A DNA stretch of 64,000 nucleotides from Eubacteriales bacterium (GTDB lineage Bacteria > Bacillota > Clostridia > Christensenellales > UBA1750), in the NCBI GenBank assembly GCA_031553225.1, contig JAVBLU010000007.1:4300-68299 (forward strand). Direction: 5' to 3'. This document shows, piece after piece, positions 2,021 through 10,852 of the stretch. A program made the position numbers and the translations under genes. The notes under the pieces were generated by a model, which worked only from the letters and a program-made list of their open reading frames with translations, had not been told where the DNA came from and ran no database searches. Position 1 is the stretch's first letter. Each line of letters starts with the position of its first letter.

Positions 2021-4204
2021 CTACTTTCTGGGCCAGGCCGCAATAAGGGTGGCGACGAGCGCCACGCCCACGTCCGCGAACACGGCCATCCACATGCCCG
2101 CGAGCCCCAGCGCGCCCAGCAGCAATACGGCCGCCTTCACGCTGAGCGCCATGGCGATGTTGAAGGCCACAACGCGGCGCGTCTCCCGGGCGATGCGCAT
2201 AGCGTCGGGCAGGCGGCCGATATCGTCGGTCATCAGTACGATGTCCGCCGCCTCGATGGCCGCGTCCGATCCAAGCGCGCCCATGGCGATGCCCACATCC
2301 GCTGAGGCGAGCACCGGCGCGTCGTTGATGCCGTCGCCCACAAACGCCGTCACCGCGCCCTTCTCCTGCCCGGCCATGATGGCCTGCAGCCGTTCCACCT
2401 TGCCGCCGGGCAGCAGGTCGGCGTGCACCTCGTCCAGGGGCAGCCCTTCGGCCATGCGCAGGGCGATGGCCCGGCGGTCGCCGGTGAGCATGGCCATGCG
2501 ACGCACGCCCGCGCGGCGCAGGGCGAGCAGCGTTTCCTGCACGCCGCTCTTAAGCTCGTCGGCCACCACGATGTAGCCCAGGTACTGGCCGCCGCGGGCG
2601 ACATGCACCGCGCCCTCGCTCTCCTGCGGGCAGGCGACGCCCCGGTCGTTGAGCAGGCGGGCGGCTCCGACGATCGTCTCCTCGCCGTCCACCAGAGCGG
2701 ACACGCCCAGGCCGGCGTGCTCGGTCACGTTTTGCGCGCTTAGGCCGCTCTCCCCCGCCGCGGCGATCGCTTTGGCCACGGGGTGGGTGGAGAACCGCTC
2801 GCACGCCGCGGCGATGGCCAGAAGCGACTCGGGCGCAACGCCCTGCGCGCCGCGCACGTCCGTCACCTGCAGCGCCCCTTTGGTGAGGGTGCCGGTCTTG
2901 TCGAACACCAGCGTATGCAGGCGCGCCAGCGCTTCCAGGTAATTGCCGCCCTTGACGAGCACACCCCGGCGCGAGCACGCGCCGATGCCCGAAAAGAACC
3001 CCAGCGGTATGGAGATGACCAGCGCGCACGGGCAGGAAACAACCAGAAACACGAGCGCCCGGTTGAGCCACATGGCGAACGGCTGCCCGAAGAGGAGAGG
3101 CGGTATGGCCGCCAGCAACGCCGCCAAAGCGATGACCAGCGGCGTGTACACGCGCGAGAACCGGGTGATGAACTGCTCGGTGGGCGCTTTTTGCGCAGCG
3201 GCGTTCTGCACCATATCCAAAATGCGCGACATGGTGGACTCGGCAAAGGGCTTTTGCACGCGCGCGGTCAATACGGCGCTCTTGTTCACCGCGCCGGAGA
3301 GCAGGCTTCCGCCCGGCCCCACCTCGCGCGGCACGGATTCGCCGGTGAGCGCAGAGGTATCCAGCTGGGAGCGGCCGTCCGTCACCTCGCTGTCCAGCGG
3401 CACGCGTTCGCCCGGCCAAATGACGATGTTCTCGCCCACGGCCACGTCCTGCGCGGGCAGAAGCGTCTCCCGACCGCCGCGCAGTACGCGCGCGCGATCC
3501 GGCCGGATGTCCATCAGCGCGCGGATGGAGCGCATGGAGCGGCGCAGCGCGGCGTTTTGAAAGTACTCGCCCACCTGATAGAAGACCATAACGCCCACGG
3601 CCTCGGCATAGTCGCCCAGGGCGATAGCGCCCACCGTGGCGATGGCCATCAGGAAGTTTTCGTCGAACAAGCGGCCGCGCAGCGTGTTGCGCAGCGCGCG
3701 GTACAGCACGTCGTACCCGGCCAGCGCATAGGCGCACAGAAGCAGCGCCGTCCGGAGGGGCGCGGGCAGGGGAAGCGCCGCGCACGCGATGAGAAGCGCC
3801 AGTGCGACGCCCACGCGCGCCCAAAGCACGCCCACGCCGCGTGCGCCTCCTGCGCGGTCGCCGTCGTGAGCGCCGCCGTCTTCCTCCACGTGGTCGTGGG
3901 CGTGCCCGCGCGCGCCGTCCTGTCCGGCGTGGCTATGATCGCAGCCGCAGCCGCGCTCCGCAGACTCTGCGTCCGCCTCCTGGCCGCCGAAGCGCAGCGT
4001 GACGCCCGGTTCGCAGCGGCGCACCACGCTTATCATGCGCGCGCGCGTCTCCGGTTCCGCCCGGCCGGCCACCCCTTCGTAGATGAGCAGGTCGGCGGTG
4101 ATATCGATGTGCGCCCGCCGCACCGCGCCCGCGCGCACGAGTGCGTCGGATAGCTGGCTTGCGCAGTTCGGGCAGTCGACGCCCTTGATCGTGCACTGTG
4201 CCAT
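2021..4204 (-). CDS. cadA: Heavy-metal (Zn/Cd/Pb) P1B-type ATPase
   Basis: HMA motif GVDCPNC, His-rich linker, LTGES, SCPCAL, DKTGTLT and GDGINDAP; start reassigned to ATG at 4204 (MAQCTIKG). Confidence 0.95.
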   Translation of the reverse strand: MAQCTIKGVDCPNCASQLSDALVRAGAVRRAHIDITADLLIYEGVAGRAEPETRARMISVVRRCEPGVTLRFGGQEADAESAERGCGCDHSHAGQDGARGHAHDHVEEDGGAHDGDRAGGARGVGVLWARVGVALALLIACAALPLPAPLRTALLLCAYALAGYDVLYRALRNTLRGRLFDENFLMAIATVGAIALGDYAEAVGVMVFYQVGEYFQNAALRRSMRSIRALMDIRPDRARVLRGGRETLLPAQDVAVGENIVIWPGERVPLDSEVTDGRSQLDTSALTGESVPREVGPGGSLLSGAVNKSAVLTARVQKPFAESTMSRILDMVQNAAAQKAPTEQFITRFSRVYTPLVIALAALLAAIPPLLFGQPFAMWLNRALVFLVVSCPCALVISIPLGFFSGIGACSRRGVLVKGGNYLEALARLHTLVFDKTGTLTKGALQVTDVRGAQGVAPESLLAIAAACERFSTHPVAKAIAAAGESGLSAQNVTEHAGLGVSALVDGEETIVGAARLLNDRGVACPQESEGAVHVARGGQYLGYIVVADELKSGVQETLLALRRAGVRRMAMLTGDRRAIALRMAEGLPLDEVHADLLPGGKVERLQAIMAGQEKGAVTAFVGDGINDAPVLASADVGIAMGALGSDAAIEAADIVLMTDDIGRLPDAMRIARETRRVVAFNIAMALSVKAAVLLLGALGLAGMWMAVFADVGVALVATLIAAWPRK

Positions 4205-4209
4205 GCGCT

Positions 4210-4614
4210 TCACTCTCCCGTCTGTTCGCCGTCTTCGTCGGAGCCGTGCCGTTCCGTGATATGCGCGATGCCCTGCGCAAAGACCGTCTGCACGTGCTCG
4301 TCCATCAGCGCATAGGCGATCTGTTTCCCCTGCCGCCTTCCCTGCACCAGGCGCGCCTGCTTGAGGACGCGCAGCTGGTGCGACACGGCCGACTGGGTCA
4401 TGCCCAGGAACTCGGCGATGTGACACACGCATAACGGGCCGTCGCTTAGGGCGAACAGGATGCGCACGCGCGTGCTGTCGCCCAGCACGCGGTAAAAGTC
4501 CGACAGGTTGTACAGGGTCTCCTCTCCGGGCATGCGCTGGGCCAGCGCAGCCATGCGCGCCTCGTGCTCCGCGATGATGTGGCCGGGTTCGCCGCAGGCG
4601 CAGGTCTCCGTCAT
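4210..4614 (-). CDS. ArsR/SmtB-family metal-sensing repressor (CadC/ZiaR-like)
   Basis: GDSTRVRIL, LCVCHIA, SQSAVSHQLRVLKQARLV and an alpha5-type DEHV...AHITE site; ATG after GAGGTG. Confidence 0.92.
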   Translation of the reverse strand: MTETCACGEPGHIIAEHEARMAALAQRMPGEETLYNLSDFYRVLGDSTRVRILFALSDGPLCVCHIAEFLGMTQSAVSHQLRVLKQARLVQGRRQGKQIAYALMDEHVQTVFAQGIAHITERHGSDEDGEQTGE

Positions 4615-4630
4615 CCCAATCACCTCAATT

Positions 4631-4691: not shown

Positions 4692-4759
4692 GGGCATCTT
4701 TCTTCTGACCGGCCGTTGTGCTATACTTTTTATATAATCCGCATTGAAGGGGTGTGCCC

Positions 4760-5458
4760 ATGAGCCGTTTGGGCGATATGATCAAAAAGGAGCGGGAGAG
4801 CCGCAAGCTGTCCCCCCGCGACGCTGCGCGCGCCTGCGGGGTGGCGGAAGGCTACCTGTCGGAGGTAGAGTCCGGCCGCCGCATCATCAACGACGCGGAG
4901 GCCGCGCGCATTCTGCGCCGCATGGGCGCCGTGCAGCCCCAGGGCGATATGGGCGAGGCGAACTGGCTGGACGAAGCCCCCGCCGCCCCCAAAACGCCCG
5001 AACGCCCGGCCGCAAAGCCGGCGAGCCCGCCGGCAAGAAAGGACGAGGGCCCGGCGGACGCTTGGCTGGACGCGCTGGGCGGGGTGATGCGCCGCGTGCC
5101 CGTGCTGGACGCGGGCGGGCGCACGCTCGAGTACCGCCCCATGCCCGTGATGGGCGGCCTCATCGAGGGCGCGCCCGCGGACAAGGTTTTTTATTACCGC
5201 ATGCCGGACGACGCGCTGCTCGGCTACCGCCTGCGCGCGGGCGACCTGCTCTTCTGCGTGCCCGTCGCCGCCCCGCCCGAAGAAGCGACCCTGGTCTTTT
5301 CCCTGAAGGGCCAAACGCTGTGCCGCCGCGTGCAAAAGCTGGAGGGAAACCGGCTGCTTGTGCAAACGCTGGACGCGCGGCCCGCCTCGCAAACGCTTGC
5401 CCTGCGCGACGTTACGATTCTGGGACGGGCCGTGCGCGCGGAAATCTTGCTGCAATAA
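4760..5458 (+). CDS. XRE-family HTH regulator with C-terminal S24/LexA-like domain lacking the catalytic Ser/Lys
   Basis: N-terminal LGDMIKKERESRKLSPRDAARACGVAEGYLSEVESGRR; C-terminal RVPVL...YRMPDDALLGYRLRAGDLL...TLCRRV. Confidence 0.8.
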   Translation: MSRLGDMIKKERESRKLSPRDAARACGVAEGYLSEVESGRRIINDAEAARILRRMGAVQPQGDMGEANWLDEAPAAPKTPERPAAKPASPPARKDEGPADAWLDALGGVMRRVPVLDAGGRTLEYRPMPVMGGLIEGAPADKVFYYRMPDDALLGYRLRAGDLLFCVPVAAPPEEATLVFSLKGQTLCRRVQKLEGNRLLVQTLDARPASQTLALRDVTILGRAVRAEILLQ

Positions 5459-5476: not shown

Positions 5477-8400
5477 ATGGCTTTCTGTCATCTGCATCTG
5501 CATACCGAATACTCGCTGCTGGACGGCGCATGCCGCATCGGGCCGCTGGTTGCGCGCGCCAAGGAACTGCAGATGACGCATTTGGCCATCACCGACCACG
5601 GCGTTTTGTACGGCGCGGTGGATTTCTACCGCGCCTGCAAGGACGCGGGCATCGTGCCGGTGATCGGCTGCGAGGTGTACGTGGCCCCGGGCAGCATGCA
5701 GGATAAAACCTCCGCCGCGCGCGAGTACGCGCACCTGGTGCTGCTGTGCGAGAACCAAAAAGGCTGGCAGAACCTGATGGAGCTGTCCTCGCTTGGGTTT
5801 ACAAAGGGGTTCTACTATAAGCCGCGCATCGACTACGAAACGCTGGAGGCGCACGCCGAGGGACTCATCGCGCTGTCGGCCTGCCTTTCGGGCGACATCC
5901 CCCGCGCGCTGCTGGACGGCCGCTACGACACGGCCAAGGCCTTGGCGCTGCGGCTTGCCCGCGCCATGGGGCCGGATCGCTTCTATTTGGAAATGCAGGA
6001 GAACGGCCTTGCCGATCAGCGCGTGGTGAACCGCGAAATACAGCGTCTGGCGGCGGACACCGCCCTTCCCCTTGTGGCCACAAACGACGTGCACTACCTG
6101 CGTCAAAGCGACGCGCGCGCGCAGGAAGTGCTTATGTGCATCCAAACGAACAAGACGATGGACGATCCCGGCCGCATGCGCATGGAAACGGACGCGCTGT
6201 ACCTGCGCTCGGAGGAGGAGATGCGGGCGCTGTTCTCGTACTGCCCGCAGGCCGTGGAGAACGCGGCGCTGATCGCCGGCCGATGCCAAGTGGATTTTGA
6301 CTTTAAGTCGCGCCACCTGCCGCGTTTTACCCCGCCCGAAGGGGAAACGCCCGAGAACATGCTGCGCAGGCTGTGTGAAAAGGGCCTGCACGAGCGCTTT
6401 GCCGAGCCCGCGCAGGAGGCGTGGGACCGGCTGAACTACGAGCTCGCCATGATCGCTCACATGGGCTTTACGGAGTATTTCCTCATCGTTTGGGACTTCA
6501 TACGCTACGCGCGGGAAAACCACATTCTGGTGGGCCCGGGACGGGGCAGCGGCGCGGGATCGCTTGTGGCGTACACGCTGTATATCACGGGCGTGGACCC
6601 GCTCGCCTGCGGACTGATCTTCGAGCGGTTCTTAAACCCCGACCGCATCTCCATGCCCGATCTGGACATCGATTTTTGCTACGAGCGCCGGCAAAAGGTG
6701 ATCGACTATGTGACGGCGCGCTACGGGTCCGACCGCGTCTGCCAGATCATCACCTTCGGCACCATGGCGGCCCGCGCCGTGCTGCGCGACGTGGGACGGG
6801 CGCTGGGTTTCGCCTACAACGAGGTGGACCCCATCGCCAAGCTCGTGCCCTTCGCGCTGGACATGACGCTGGACAAGGCTTTAACCGTAAGCGCCGACCT
6901 GAAGAGCATGTACGACTCGGACGGGCGCGTACGGGAGCTGTACGACACGGCGCGCGCCCTGGAGGGCATGCCGCGCCACGCCTCCACGCACGCGGCGGGC
7001 GTGCTCATCACCGCCGATCCTGTCACGCGCTACGTGCCCGTGCAGACGAACGACGAGGTGGTCACCACCCAGTTCCCCATGAACACGGTGGAGAAGCTTG
7101 GCCTTCTGAAGATGGATTTTTTGGGGTTGCGCACGCTGACCGTGCTGCGCGATACCATGGTGATGCTGGGAGCCCGCGAGGACGAGGTGGAGGCCCGGCT
7201 GGCGGCCATCCCTTTAGACGACGAGGCGACCTACGCCCTTCTTGGCAGCGGGGACACGGACGGCGTGTTCCAAATGGAGTCCGGCGGCATGCGCCGCGTG
7301 CTTGTGGAGCTGAAACCGCACAGCCTGGAGGAGATTACCGCCGTCATATCCCTGTACCGGCCGGGGCCCATGGAGTCCATCCCCCGCTACATCGCCGGAA
7401 AAAAGAACCCCTCTCTTGTCACCTATCTGCACGAGTCGCTGGAGCCTATCCTGAACACCTCCTACGGCTGCATGGTGTACCAGGAGCAGGTGCTGCAGAT
7501 CGTACGCGACGTGGGCGGTTTTTCCATGGGCCGCGCCGACCTGATGCGCCGCGCCATGAGCAAAAAACAAAGGGACGTGATGGCCAGCGAAGGCGAGCAC
7601 TTCATCCGCGGAGCCATGGACAAGGGCATGCCCGAGGCGGCGGCCCGCCAGTTGTTTGACGAGATGAGCGCCTTTGCGCAGTACGCCTTCAACAAATCGC
7701 ATGCGGCAGCCTATGCGCTGATCGCCTACCAAACCGCGTACCTGAAGTACCATCACCCGCGCGAACTGATGGCGGCGCTCATGAACTCCATGCTGGGCAA
7801 CACGCAGAAAATCGCAGCGTATATACAGGGCCTCAAGCGCAAGGATATCCTCGCCCTGCCTCCGCACGTGAACCGCTCGGGGGCGCAGTTCTGCGTTGAA
7901 GAGGGCGGCCTTCGCTTCGGGCTCTCGGGCGTGAAAAACGTGGGACACACAGCGGTCGCGCACATCGTTTCCGAGCGGGAGCGCGCGCCCTTCACCGGCC
8001 TTGCGGACTTTTGCCGCCGCGCGGGCGAGGCGGCGGGCAAGCGGGGGCTGGAGTCCCTGATACGAGCGGGTGCGCTGGACGGCCTGGGCGCGAGCCGCGC
8101 GCAGATGATGGCCGTGTTCGAGCGCTTTATGGACGGCATGGCGGGCGAGCGCCGCCGCCAGGTGGAGGGACAGGTGTCCCTGTTTGGCGGGGAGATTGCC
8201 GAAGCCGCGCCGCCTCCGCTCCCTCAGGTGCCCGACTACCCGCCCCGCTACGCCCTGCAGCTGGAGAAGGAGGTGACGGGCATCTACCTGTCCGGCCACC
8301 CGCTGGACAGCATGCGCCCGCTGCTTGACCAGCTGGACGTGAACACCTCGCTGTTGTACGAGATGGCCGAGGAAGAGGACGCGCAGGCCCGCTACGATAA

Positions 8401-9037
8401 CATGCCCGTGCACCTGGGCGGCATCATCACCCAAAGCCGCCGCAAGCTGACGCGCAAAAACGCCATGATGGCCTTTGTGACGCTGGAGGACCTGTACGGA
8501 GCGATTGAAGCGCTCGTGTTTCCCAAGGCGGTGGAGCTGACCCCCCAGCTGCTGGAGGCCGACTCGTGCGTGGTGCTCCACGGGCGGCTCTCGCTGCGCG
8601 AGGATGAGGAGCCCAAGGTGGTTGTGGAGGCCGTCACGCCGCTGACGCAGGAAGGCCTGGCCGCTCCGCAGCGCTTTGCAGGGGGCGGCCGCTACGCAAA
8701 CGGCGGCGGGAACGGCAGCTATGCGCAGAAAACCCCTCCGCCGTCGCCGGAGGGGCCTGGGCCATACGATATGCCCGCGGAGGCGGCCGAGCCGGATCTG
8801 CCGCCCAAGTGCCCGGCATGCGGCGCGGCGCTGGTAAAGAGCAAAAAGGGCGGCTTTGGCTGCTCGCGCTTTCGCGAGGGCTGCCGCTTCGCCGTACCCG
8901 TGGACGCGCTGAAGAGCCTGGGCGGTCCGGCCATTGACGAAACTCTTCTGCTTCGCGCGCTGCGCGAGCGCGCCGCCGCCGTACCGGGCGGAACGGTTCT
9001 CCTGACGGACACGGGCCTGAGCTACACCCCGTTCTAG
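5477..9037 (+). CDS. dnaE: DNA polymerase III alpha subunit with atypical C-terminal zinc-ribbon extension
   Basis: PHP motifs HLHLHTEYSLLDG, TDHG and TNDVHY; GRGSGAGS, SMPDLDIDF, FNKSHA; OB fold; tail CPACG...FGCSRFREGCRF. Confidence 0.97.
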   Translation: MAFCHLHLHTEYSLLDGACRIGPLVARAKELQMTHLAITDHGVLYGAVDFYRACKDAGIVPVIGCEVYVAPGSMQDKTSAAREYAHLVLLCENQKGWQNLMELSSLGFTKGFYYKPRIDYETLEAHAEGLIALSACLSGDIPRALLDGRYDTAKALALRLARAMGPDRFYLEMQENGLADQRVVNREIQRLAADTALPLVATNDVHYLRQSDARAQEVLMCIQTNKTMDDPGRMRMETDALYLRSEEEMRALFSYCPQAVENAALIAGRCQVDFDFKSRHLPRFTPPEGETPENMLRRLCEKGLHERFAEPAQEAWDRLNYELAMIAHMGFTEYFLIVWDFIRYARENHILVGPGRGSGAGSLVAYTLYITGVDPLACGLIFERFLNPDRISMPDLDIDFCYERRQKVIDYVTARYGSDRVCQIITFGTMAARAVLRDVGRALGFAYNEVDPIAKLVPFALDMTLDKALTVSADLKSMYDSDGRVRELYDTARALEGMPRHASTHAAGVLITADPVTRYVPVQTNDEVVTTQFPMNTVEKLGLLKMDFLGLRTLTVLRDTMVMLGAREDEVEARLAAIPLDDEATYALLGSGDTDGVFQMESGGMRRVLVELKPHSLEEITAVISLYRPGPMESIPRYIAGKKNPSLVTYLHESLEPILNTSYGCMVYQEQVLQIVRDVGGFSMGRADLMRRAMSKKQRDVMASEGEHFIRGAMDKGMPEAAARQLFDEMSAFAQYAFNKSHAAAYALIAYQTAYLKYHHPRELMAALMNSMLGNTQKIAAYIQGLKRKDILALPPHVNRSGAQFCVEEGGLRFGLSGVKNVGHTAVAHIVSERERAPFTGLADFCRRAGEAAGKRGLESLIRAGALDGLGASRAQMMAVFERFMDGMAGERRRQVEGQVSLFGGEIAEAAPPPLPQVPDYPPRYALQLEKEVTGIYLSGHPLDSMRPLLDQLDVNTSLLYEMAEEEDAQARYDNMPVHLGGIITQSRRKLTRKNAMMAFVTLEDLYGAIEALVFPKAVELTPQLLEADSCVVLHGRLSLREDEEPKVVVEAVTPLTQEGLAAPQRFAGGGRYANGGGNGSYAQKTPPPSPEGPGPYDMPAEAAEPDLPPKCPACGAALVKSKKGGFGCSRFREGCRFAVPVDALKSLGGPAIDETLLLRALRERAAAVPGGTVLLTDTGLSYTPF

Positions 9038-9109
9038 CCCGCCTGCTGCCGACATGCCGCCGAAGCGCGCCGCATGCGGGCTTCGTCCGCTTTTATCAGG
9101 CCGCCGCGC

Positions 9110-9832
9110 CTACCTGGCCATGGTTTCGTACAGGGCGATGCCCGCGGCCACGGCCAGGTTCAGCGAGTCCACCAGGGGCGACTGAGGGATGCGCACGGCC
9201 TGGCCCATGCGGGAAAACTCCGGAGGCAGGCCCTCCGCCTCGTTGCCGAACACGAGCGCATAAGGCTCCCGCGGGGGCGCGAGCTCCGGCAGGGCGAGGG
9301 CGCCGTCCAGCATGAACGGGTACAGAGCGTACCCTGGATGCTCGGCGCGGTAGTCTTCAAAGGTTTCGTACGTTTTCGTGCGCAGGCGAAAGAGCGCGCC
9401 CATGGACGAGCGGGCCACATGCGGGTCGTGCACGTCCACGCACGGGGCGATGAGCGCGACGTCCGGCGCGGCAAAGCCCAGCGCGGCCCGCAGGATGGTG
9501 CCCACGTTCCCTGCGTCCGCCGCGCGCACGAGCACCGCCTGGCGCGGGCCGGTCAGCTGATCGGCCCACTTCTCGTACACGCCCACGGCGAAGCAGTTCC
9601 CCTTGGGCGAAAGGCGCGCGATGGCGCGGTCGTCCTCCTTGCAGGGCACCTGCAGGGCGGCGCACTCCCGCCGCAAGGCCGCGACGCCCTCGTTGCGCGC
9701 CCCCTGCGAGGACAGCAGCACGCACAGCGCCTTTTCCGGGCGGGCGCGCAATAGCTCCAGCGAAACGGACGCCCCCAGCGCGTAGCTGTGCGGCATCTCG
9801 CGCTTATAAGGCTTGTAGCGGGGAAGCTCCAT
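9110..9832 (-). CDS. TrmH/SpoU-family RNA methyltransferase
   Basis: DAGNVGTILR, LVFGNEAEGL and DSLNLAVAAGI SPOUT motifs; ATG after AAGGAGG. Confidence 0.92.
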   Translation of the reverse strand: MELPRYKPYKREMPHSYALGASVSLELLRARPEKALCVLLSSQGARNEGVAALRRECAALQVPCKEDDRAIARLSPKGNCFAVGVYEKWADQLTGPRQAVLVRAADAGNVGTILRAALGFAAPDVALIAPCVDVHDPHVARSSMGALFRLRTKTYETFEDYRAEHPGYALYPFMLDGALALPELAPPREPYALVFGNEAEGLPPEFSRMGQAVRIPQSPLVDSLNLAVAAGIALYETMAR

Positions 9833-9949
9833 ACCGCTTGCACCTCCTTGCGGCATTATATCACGGCCGGCGCAATCTTGCGCGCCCATGGTTCGTAAAG
9901 CCATTAATTGGGTATGAAAGGGCATACGGAAACGAAAGGAGATAAGACC

Positions 9950-10330
9950 ATGAAGAACCAAAGGACATACCTCATCTGCGATACCTGCAACACCATGGTC
10001 GGTTTGATGGACGACGGGGGCGGCACCGTTGTGTGCTGTGGCAAGCCCATGCGCGTGCTGGAGGCGAACACCACGGACGCGGCCAAGGAGAAGCATGTGC
10101 CGATCGCCGTGCGCGAGGGCTGCCTTCTGAAGGTGAGCGTCGGTTCGGCGGCGCACCCCATGACGGACGAGCACCACATCGCCTGGGTGGCCACGGCGCA
10201 GGGCGGGCACACCCAGCGCATAACGCTAAGCCCGAAGGACGCGCCCGCGGCGGAGTTCTGCGTGGAGGACGCTCCCCTCACCGTGTACGCCTACTGTAAC
10301 CTGCACGGCCTTTGGAAAGCGGAGGTATAG
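9950..10330 (+). CDS. dfx: Desulfoferrodoxin / superoxide reductase
   Basis: CDTCN...VCCG desulforedoxin domain; EKHVP, HPM..EHHI and YCNLHGLW. Confidence 0.93.
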   Translation: MKNQRTYLICDTCNTMVGLMDDGGGTVVCCGKPMRVLEANTTDAAKEKHVPIAVREGCLLKVSVGSAAHPMTDEHHIAWVATAQGGHTQRITLSPKDAPAAEFCVEDAPLTVYAYCNLHGLWKAEV

Positions 10331-10333
10331 CGC

Positions 10334-10852
10334 ATGACGCCCGAGGTGGAGCGCGCCCTACAAGAGCAAGTGCAGGCGGAGATGTACTCCGCCTATCTGT
10401 ACCTGGCCATGTCGGCCTGGGCGGGCCATGAGAACTGGCCAGGCCTGCGGAACTGGCTGTTCGTGCAGTACCAGGAAGAGACGCTGCATGCGCTCACCCT
10501 GCACGACCAGATCATCGGGCGCGGGGCGCGCTCGGTGCTCATGGCCATCGACGCCCCGCCCGCCGACTTTGGCAGCCACATCGACATCTTTCGGGCCGTG
10601 CTGAAGCATGAGCGCTACATCACCGGCCGCATCGGGGCCATCGCCACCCTGGCGCTCAAGGAGAACGACCACGCGCTCTATCAGTTCATTATGATTTACG
10701 TGAAGGAGCAGGTGGAGGAGGAAGCAAGCGCCACCGACCTTTTGCGGCGCGTGGAGCGCATCGGCGACAACCCCGGCCTTCTTGAGGCGCTGGACAAGGA
10801 GTTGGCCGCCCGCGTCTTTACGCCCAGCTTTGGCGCGGCGGCGCAGGCGTAG
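10334..10852 (+). CDS. ftnA: Non-haem ferritin
   Basis: EMYSAYLYLAM, QYQEETLHA, HERYIT and EQVEEE ferroxidase motifs. Confidence 0.92.
   Translation: MTPEVERALQEQVQAEMYSAYLYLAMSAWAGHENWPGLRNWLFVQYQEETLHALTLHDQIIGRGARSVLMAIDAPPADFGSHIDIFRAVLKHERYITGRIGAIATLALKENDHALYQFIMIYVKEQVEEEASATDLLRRVERIGDNPGLLEALDKELAARVFTPSFGAAAQA

Follow-up and report, generated by a model that had tools for sequence, protein, structure and literature searches.

A DnaE1-type DNA polymerase III alpha subunit carrying a topoisomerase III-like zinc-ribbon unit in the place of its usual C-terminal domain

The window, i.e., the whole stretch of 64,000 nucleotides that was analysed, belongs to the genome of a gut member of the Clostridia and contains on its forward strand a dnaE gene whose open reading frame (ORF; 5477..9037) runs uninterrupted for 1186 amino acids to a stop codon, as read from the ORF list and the translation. 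The features of this gene are as follows.

5477..9037, + strand: dnaE, DnaE1-type DNA polymerase III alpha subunit (ORF list, translation, Pfam, NCBIfam)
DnaE residues 5-175: PHP domain (Pfam)
DnaE residues 295-550: DNA_pol3_alpha core (Pfam)
DnaE residues 553-716: finger domain (Pfam)
DnaE residues 794-877: HHH_6 (HhH) domain (Pfam)
8411..8644, + strand: OB fold, the last ordinary DnaE domain (residues 979-1056; Pfam PF01336, E 2.7e-09)
8663..8677, + strand: APQRF, possibly left over from the first strand of the C-terminal domain that was lost (residues 1063-1067)
8678..8806, + strand: Gly/Pro-rich low-complexity linker (residues 1068-1110, within a stretch that starts at about residue 1059)
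8807..8902, + strand: predicted four-Cys zinc ribbon (residues 1111-1142)
8903..9034, + strand: post-ribbon subdomain, predicted to fold into a helix and three strands after a GGP turn (residues 1143-1186)

Upstream of dnaE, a 234-aa ORF (4754-5458, + strand) encodes HTH_3/HTH_31 and Peptidase_S24-like domains of the LexA/phage-repressor type and stops 19 nt short of the start codon of dnaE, so that the two genes may be co-transcribed. The position of the catalytic Ser in this ORF reads, by eye, P-D-D-A and not G-x-S-M. The dnaE gene of B. subtilis has been reported to be a member of the SOS regulon (PMC3000357). Farther upstream, within 2021-4623, the gene of an ArsR-family regulator (4210-4623, - strand) adjoins an 803-aa ORF that by eye resembles a P-type ATPase (DKTGT), including a metal-binding motif at the N-terminus and a His-rich stretch. 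Downstream, at 9908-10852 (+ strand), lies a desulfoferrodoxin (superoxide reductase) gene with a ferritin-like gene directly after it, which looks like the oxidative-stress pair of an anaerobe; a SpoU-type methylase gene on the opposite strand (9110-9868) adjoins this pair.

The domain architecture of DnaE is highly conserved, and all five ordinary domains, i.e., PHP, polymerase core, fingers, HhH and OB fold, were found in this protein by Pfam and in the usual order. The metal ligands of the PHP domain and the PDxD motif are recognisable in the sequence, and a clamp-binding-like motif, QVSLF, is internal to the protein. The NCBIfam model of the Clostridia-type DnaE, PRK06826, matched the whole protein with 1539.6 bits (cut-off 1260) over model positions 3-1074 of 1151, showing that the usual C-terminal ~75 residues are absent. 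The end of the OB fold is conserved with relatives as far as ...GRLSLREDEEPK..., and the sequence after the OB fold reads ...TPLTQEGLAAPQRFAGGGRYANGGGNGSYAQKTPPPSPEGPGPYDMPAEAAEPDLPPKCPACGAALVKSKKGGFGCSRFREGCRFAVPVDALKSLGGPAIDETLLLRALRERAAAVPGGTVLLTDTGLSYTPF, followed by the stop codon. The original prediction had described an ORF that runs without a stop past the OB fold, via a Gly/Pro linker, into a zinc ribbon in place of the usual tau-binding tail, and the sequence is exactly as quoted there.

The ordinary C-terminal domain (CTD) consists of ~70 residues after a short linker, of the type ...LYLRL...PG..PV...LLG..NV.L, and was present in every other complete DnaE of the family or order whose end was read. 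A comparison by hhalign of the tail with a profile of 34 ordinary CTD sequences gave a probability of 1.2% for an alignment of 27 tails and of 0.2% for the two DnaE tails described below. A tblastn search of the whole genome with the domains of six relatives found no significant match to the CTD, which shows that the CTD has not been relocated to another gene. Together with the incomplete coverage of PRK06826, these comparisons bear out the predicted absence of the tau-binding tail and indicate that the CTD has been lost from DnaE, not diverged. In relatives from genus g5, the place of the APQRF motif after the OB fold reads A(R)PQRFYVKV..., and the corresponding residues in the second tailed DnaE (genome G008) are AGRLF, which suggests a replacement breakpoint just after APQRF, a motif so short that it serves as a hint only.

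The origin of the tail was indicated when the whole protein was searched against relatives in six frames: residues ~1100-1185 also matched the ends of frames of ~700-825 aa. One of these frames, a 774-aa protein with Toprim and Topoisom_bac domains, is located on contig C8 of the same genome and is, from its sequence, a type IA topoisomerase of the topoisomerase III (Topo III)-like kind. This enzyme is 39% identical to the DnaE tail (E 1.4e-9), and a long Pro/Ala-rich linker precedes its ribbon, after which its tail reads GCPLCGAQLLAGEKGYSCARWREGCAFRIARGD... A six-frame search using the last 82 residues of DnaE as the query gave matches in 64 of 401 sampled genomes of the order (E 1e-12 to 1e-4), and all but three of these matches were frames of ~700-850 aa or longer frames that proved to be Topo III. 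The best Topo III matches, with E values of 1.3e-12 to 1.4e-9 per genome, cover tail residues 7-81 of 82. The four Cys do not vary among 27 aligned tails, whose consensus is CPLCG..V.EN.KAF.CS.WR.GC.FT.WK..L.R.GGP.L...... Two ribbon patterns, scanned against one genome from each species, returned at least 548 relatives; among the best 80 of these, which were classified, 69 were Topo IA enzymes (from Clostridia, Bacteroidota, Campylobacterota and others), the others were frames truncated at contig ends or unclassified, and none was a DnaE. A further apparent match in the same genome, the third, is a 314-aa frame on contig C5 that is aldo/keto reductase-like by eye and was treated as chance.

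These matches identify the tail, at the level of sequence, as a homologue of the C-terminal unit of Topo III from the same order, i.e., of the ribbon together with a short alpha/beta part. The type IA topoisomerase origin originally proposed is upheld by the Topo III C-termini, which match at E 1e-9 to 1e-12 per genome, and the repeats of topoisomerase I (TopA) were set aside as nearest relatives of the tail in favour of the C-terminal units of Topo III. The spacing C-x2-C ... C-x(4-9)-C of the four Cys in Zn_ribbon_Top1 (PF01396) is present in the tail. The PF01396 scores of 14.1, 17.7, 19.1 and 19.6 bits, however, all lie below the gathering cut-off of 32, so that formal membership of this family is not reached; the 19.1-bit match spans residues 7-38 of the tail (P0003). 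When the whole genome was searched in six frames with PF01396, the tail ranked next after the three TopA ribbons (58, 56 and 34 bits), and hhalign of the tail against these three ribbons gave a probability of 75% (E 2.5e-5). Thus, the claim of a topoisomerase-type ribbon stands as regards the homology to Topo III and the invariant Cys, but not as regards TopA repeats, and the proposed HMM comparison yielded a match that stays sub-threshold.

The part that follows the ribbon is less readily assigned to a known family. No match to Toprim_Crpt (PF13342) was found in this genome at E <= 1, and this model matches 6 of the 27 aligned tails. In the DnaE and order-type tails, the post-ribbon part is ~11 residues shorter than canonical Toprim_Crpt, and hhalign of this short form against canonical Toprim_Crpt repeats gave a weak match (probability 17%, E 1.4e-3). 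The post-ribbon part may therefore be a shortened Toprim_Crpt, which is a reasonable, if provisional, label. In two public Topo III-like proteins, P0009 (1530 aa) and P0018 (1158 aa), the ribbon plus Toprim_Crpt unit occurs five to seven times in tandem and is clearly a module that can be repeated. In a 211-aa metagenomic protein, P0075, the N-terminal ~130 residues resemble the start of glycyl-tRNA synthetase and the ribbon module comes directly after them, so that P0075 is either a further host protein for the module or the product of a chimeric contig.

The four ribbon Cys of the window's DnaE are C1112, C1115, C1129 and C1136 (nt 8810-12, 8819-21, 8861-63 and 8882-84). The ribbon starts with KCPACGAALVKSKKGGFGCSRFREGCRFAV..., and ~45 residues follow it up to the stop codon. 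Aromatic residues flank the third Cys in F1127-G-C1129-S-R-F1132, which aligns with the [FY]-x-C-x-x-[YW] of TopA and Topo III ribbons; in the tail of G008, a Val replaces the first of these aromatics. An AlphaFold2 (AF2) model based on the alignment of 27 sequences gave the tail a mean pLDDT of 85.4 and shows three strands in the ribbon, then a helix and a sheet of three strands. In the numbering of the 82-residue tail (P0003), the ribbon strands are residues 14-17, 22-25 and 35-37, and the post-ribbon part consists of a helix (51-60) and three strands (62-65, 68-72 and 77-81). According to this model, the module comprises the ribbon plus ~45 more folded residues, not a ribbon alone, so that the four-Cys ribbon of the original prediction is present but does not account for the whole tail. 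With the AF2 tail model as query, Foldseek gave no significant match in the PDB or BFVD; this null result tells little either way for a small two-part module of 82 residues, whose parts may be arbitrarily oriented. Searches of PDB sequences with the tail by phmmer and hmmsearch gave only chance zinc-finger matches.

The Topo III-type tail was found on DnaE in 2 of 20 species genomes of the family, which represent nine genera: G000 (this genome, genus g1) and G008 (genus g9). A survey of DnaE C-termini in the clade thus shows the same architecture, with diverged sequence, in a second genus, and the CTD is retained in the other relatives. The sample of 401 genomes from the order yielded no third tailed DnaE. 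Among 5.8 billion proteins, the query itself was the only match to the tail region alone and the only sequence to cover the tail when the OB fold was included in the search. Six DnaE proteins of the collection were read, five long ones (1174-1208 aa) and a sixth of 1162 aa, and all have ordinary CTDs, which lie behind longer linkers. Among metagenome contigs, 12 DnaE loci were found, with an ordinary CTD in all eight C-termini that were read. A representative library gave 265 tail matches and no DnaE, but this search is uninformative on tailed DnaEs, as clustering at 50% identity would hide them behind representatives with an ordinary CTD. The tailed DnaE gives a well-known enzyme an architecture that is both new and rare.

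With the tails excluded, a maximum-likelihood analysis of the DnaE cores placed G000 and G008 as sisters with support of 100/99. The two tails are 31-36% identical, whereas the cores are 60% identical, and 25 alignment columns are identical between the tails, including CP-x-CGA-x-L, CSR-x-x-EGC-x-F, DA, GP and several hydrophobic positions. The linkers of both proteins contain SYAQ in the alignment. The simplest account of these sequences would be a single replacement of the CTD in the common ancestor of G000 and G008. The dnaE neighbourhoods of the two genomes show no synteny.

A tree of the tails, built from 88 columns and showing long branches, joined the DnaE tails of both genomes to the tail of the Topo III of G000 itself (support 81/82). 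CGA-x-L is common to all three, and none of them has T-x-W-K, a conserved motif located behind the fourth Cys of most Topo III tails in the alignment. This grouping points to the lineage's own topB as the probable donor of the tail. No topoisomerase III gene was found in G008, a genome which is 84% complete and in which TopA (L167) and the DnaE tail were the only matches. In two other genera of the family, the Topo III genes (G001:C125; G017:C158/C77; L165, L166) match the enzyme of G000 only as far as its residue ~660-700 and seem, from their sequences, to be without the ribbon unit; two of these genes contain an in-frame TGA.

This genome encodes one DnaE and one PolC, and a PolC frame of 1432 aa is also present in G008. 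The original prediction spoke of DnaE as "the replicase", a designation which has to be corrected, since PolC is also encoded and DnaE is therefore not the sole replicase. The PolC plus DnaE1 system of Clostridia, including its division of labour, has been described as experimentally uncharacterised (PMC3919608). The DnaX frames of the two tailed genomes, 577 and 628 aa, compare with 531-681 aa in relatives, and these normal lengths give no sign that the C-terminus of tau was lost together with the CTD of DnaE.

The overall reading that we favour, with moderate confidence, is that a topB-derived unit replaced the CTD of DnaE, was kept in both genera and provides a single-stranded DNA (ssDNA) tether in the place of anchoring by tau. 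The sequences show that the CTD was exchanged, in the common ancestor of g1 and g9, for a low-complexity linker and a single C-terminal unit of the Topo III type, probably taken from topB of the lineage itself. Loss or replacement of the CTD has precedent among DnaE proteins, and SSB instead of tau holds the DnaE of B. subtilis at forks (PMC3919608, PMC3000357). The functional part, argued from analogy, is put forward more tentatively, with chances that we place at or slightly under even: the tail would be a zinc- and ssDNA-binding, flexible tether to the template that takes over from the link to tau. The ribbon would bind one Zn, and the aromatics beside its third Cys would hold ssDNA in the manner of type IA topoisomerase ribbons; aromatics at those positions of E. 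coli Topo I stack on ssDNA bases (PMC9369019, PMC4678816). Carried on a flexible linker of ~45 residues, the ribbon could keep DnaE attached to template ssDNA close to the end of the primer and might so substitute for the tau-mediated anchoring provided by the lost CTD, and PolC would retain the link to tau. The nucleic-acid-binding surface may, however, be altered, given the loss of T-x-W-K and the Val at the first aromatic position in G008.

A serious, if somewhat unlikely, alternative is that the module is not a DNA binder but a protein-docking adaptor shared by Topo III and DnaE, in which case the same unit would occur on both enzymes because both need the same partner at the fork, e.g., the SSB tail, the DnaX complex or the helicase. 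The presence of the same unit on two different fork enzymes of one genome is what such an adaptor would produce, and there are parallels in model organisms: SSB and the DnaX complex have been reported to bring E. coli Topo III to forks (PMC7140829), the DnaE of B. subtilis gathers and is retained at forks through the C-terminus of SSB rather than through tau (PMC3000357), and the zinc ribbons of E. coli Topo I bind RNA polymerase as well (PMC4678816). The absence of the aromatic/basic WK motif from the DnaE versions also fits a module that has lost its DNA contact and kept its fold. However, E. coli Topo III is without such a ribbon (PMC9369019), so that its recruitment to forks is independent of the module, and the aromatic positions of ssDNA-binding ribbons are retained in the window's copy. 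In a broader form of this docking idea, which we regard as unlikely, the ribbon and the short alpha/beta part would constitute a portable fork-targeting adaptor that binds a component of the replisome (again the SSB tail, the DnaX complex or the helicase) and brings the Topo III of Clostridia and Bacteroidota to forks. If this were true, the transplant onto DnaE would amount to a natural experiment in which one anchor of a PolC plus DnaE1 replisome proved exchangeable for the other.

It is quite improbable that the tail is a tolerated, functionless leftover of recombination at a CTD that is dispensable when PolC is present. Many DnaE3 and all DnaE2 proteins are without a CTD (PMC3919608), divergence between G000 and G008 is far greater in the tails than in the cores, and motifs conserved in Topo III have been lost from the DnaE tails, all of which a leftover would allow. 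On the other hand, the four Cys, CP-x-CGA, CSR-x-x-EGC-x-F, DA and GP, among the 25 identical columns, survive across two genera, AF2 predicts a compact fold, and a useless tail of 128 residues should have gathered stop codons over such divergence.

A chimera of assembly or binning, in which a topB-like 3' end was mis-joined to dnaE, could be suspected in a draft genome of 66 contigs. It is nevertheless very unlikely, because the assemblies of G000 and G008 are independent and their tails are only 31-36% identical: the same fusion, with diverged sequence and a homologous linker, is present in another genus. In addition, GC content is even across 8550-9100 with no break at the junction, the reading frame is continuous, and the genome's own Topo III, at just 39% identity, is not the source of a mis-join. 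That the tail is an ordinary CTD diverged past recognition, with four Cys by chance, can practically be dismissed, as its position in the protein and the resemblance of APQRF to the start of a CTD are outweighed by the hhalign probabilities of only 1.2% and 0.2% against the CTD profile and by Topo III matches that are significant across the whole 75 residues.

In the E. coli replisome, the CTD serves as the handle with which tau holds on to the polymerase. The swap in the only DnaE of this genome implies that the tau handle is dispensable for DnaE in a PolC plus DnaE1 system, and that a predicted ssDNA-binding or shared docking unit can stand in for it. It also draws attention to the ribbon plus Toprim_Crpt unit of Topo III, which is widespread and occurs in hundreds of species in one scan. 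The effect is limited in that the swap is known from two uncultured genera only.

Compared with known systems, the tail occupies the same place as the CTD of canonical DnaE1, straight after the OB fold; that CTD, which binds tau in E. coli (PMC3919608), is without a Cys ribbon and shows no detectable homology to the tail. The C-terminal unit of Topo III, on the other hand, is 30-47% identical to the DnaE tail across the ribbon and the post-ribbon part and shares with it CP-x-CG, CS-x-W/F-x-x-GC-x-F, GGP and a preceding low-complexity linker. The two differ in that the Topo III unit sits on a Toprim/Topoisom_bac core, whereas the DnaE tail is a single copy on a polymerase, and in that both DnaE tails are without the T-x-W-K motif. 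The D5-D7 ribbons of E. coli TopA have the C-x2-C ... C-x6-C spacing in common with the tail, and aromatics on both sides of the third Cys are likewise common to the tail and the E. coli Topo I ribbons (PMC9369019, PMC4678816); unlike the TopA-type repeats, the DnaE ribbon carries an extra alpha/beta part after it. A precedent for the replacement of a DnaE1 CTD by a small zinc-binding domain is the second DnaE1 of Desulfococcus oleovorans (Timinskas et al. 2014, PMC3919608; also PMC12926913), in which the CTD is replaced by a Lar-like zinc domain. That domain belongs to a different family (PF14354, Lar, rubredoxin-type), and the altered DnaE of D. oleovorans is an extra copy that accompanies a typical one; the genome analysed here has no DnaE other than the altered one.
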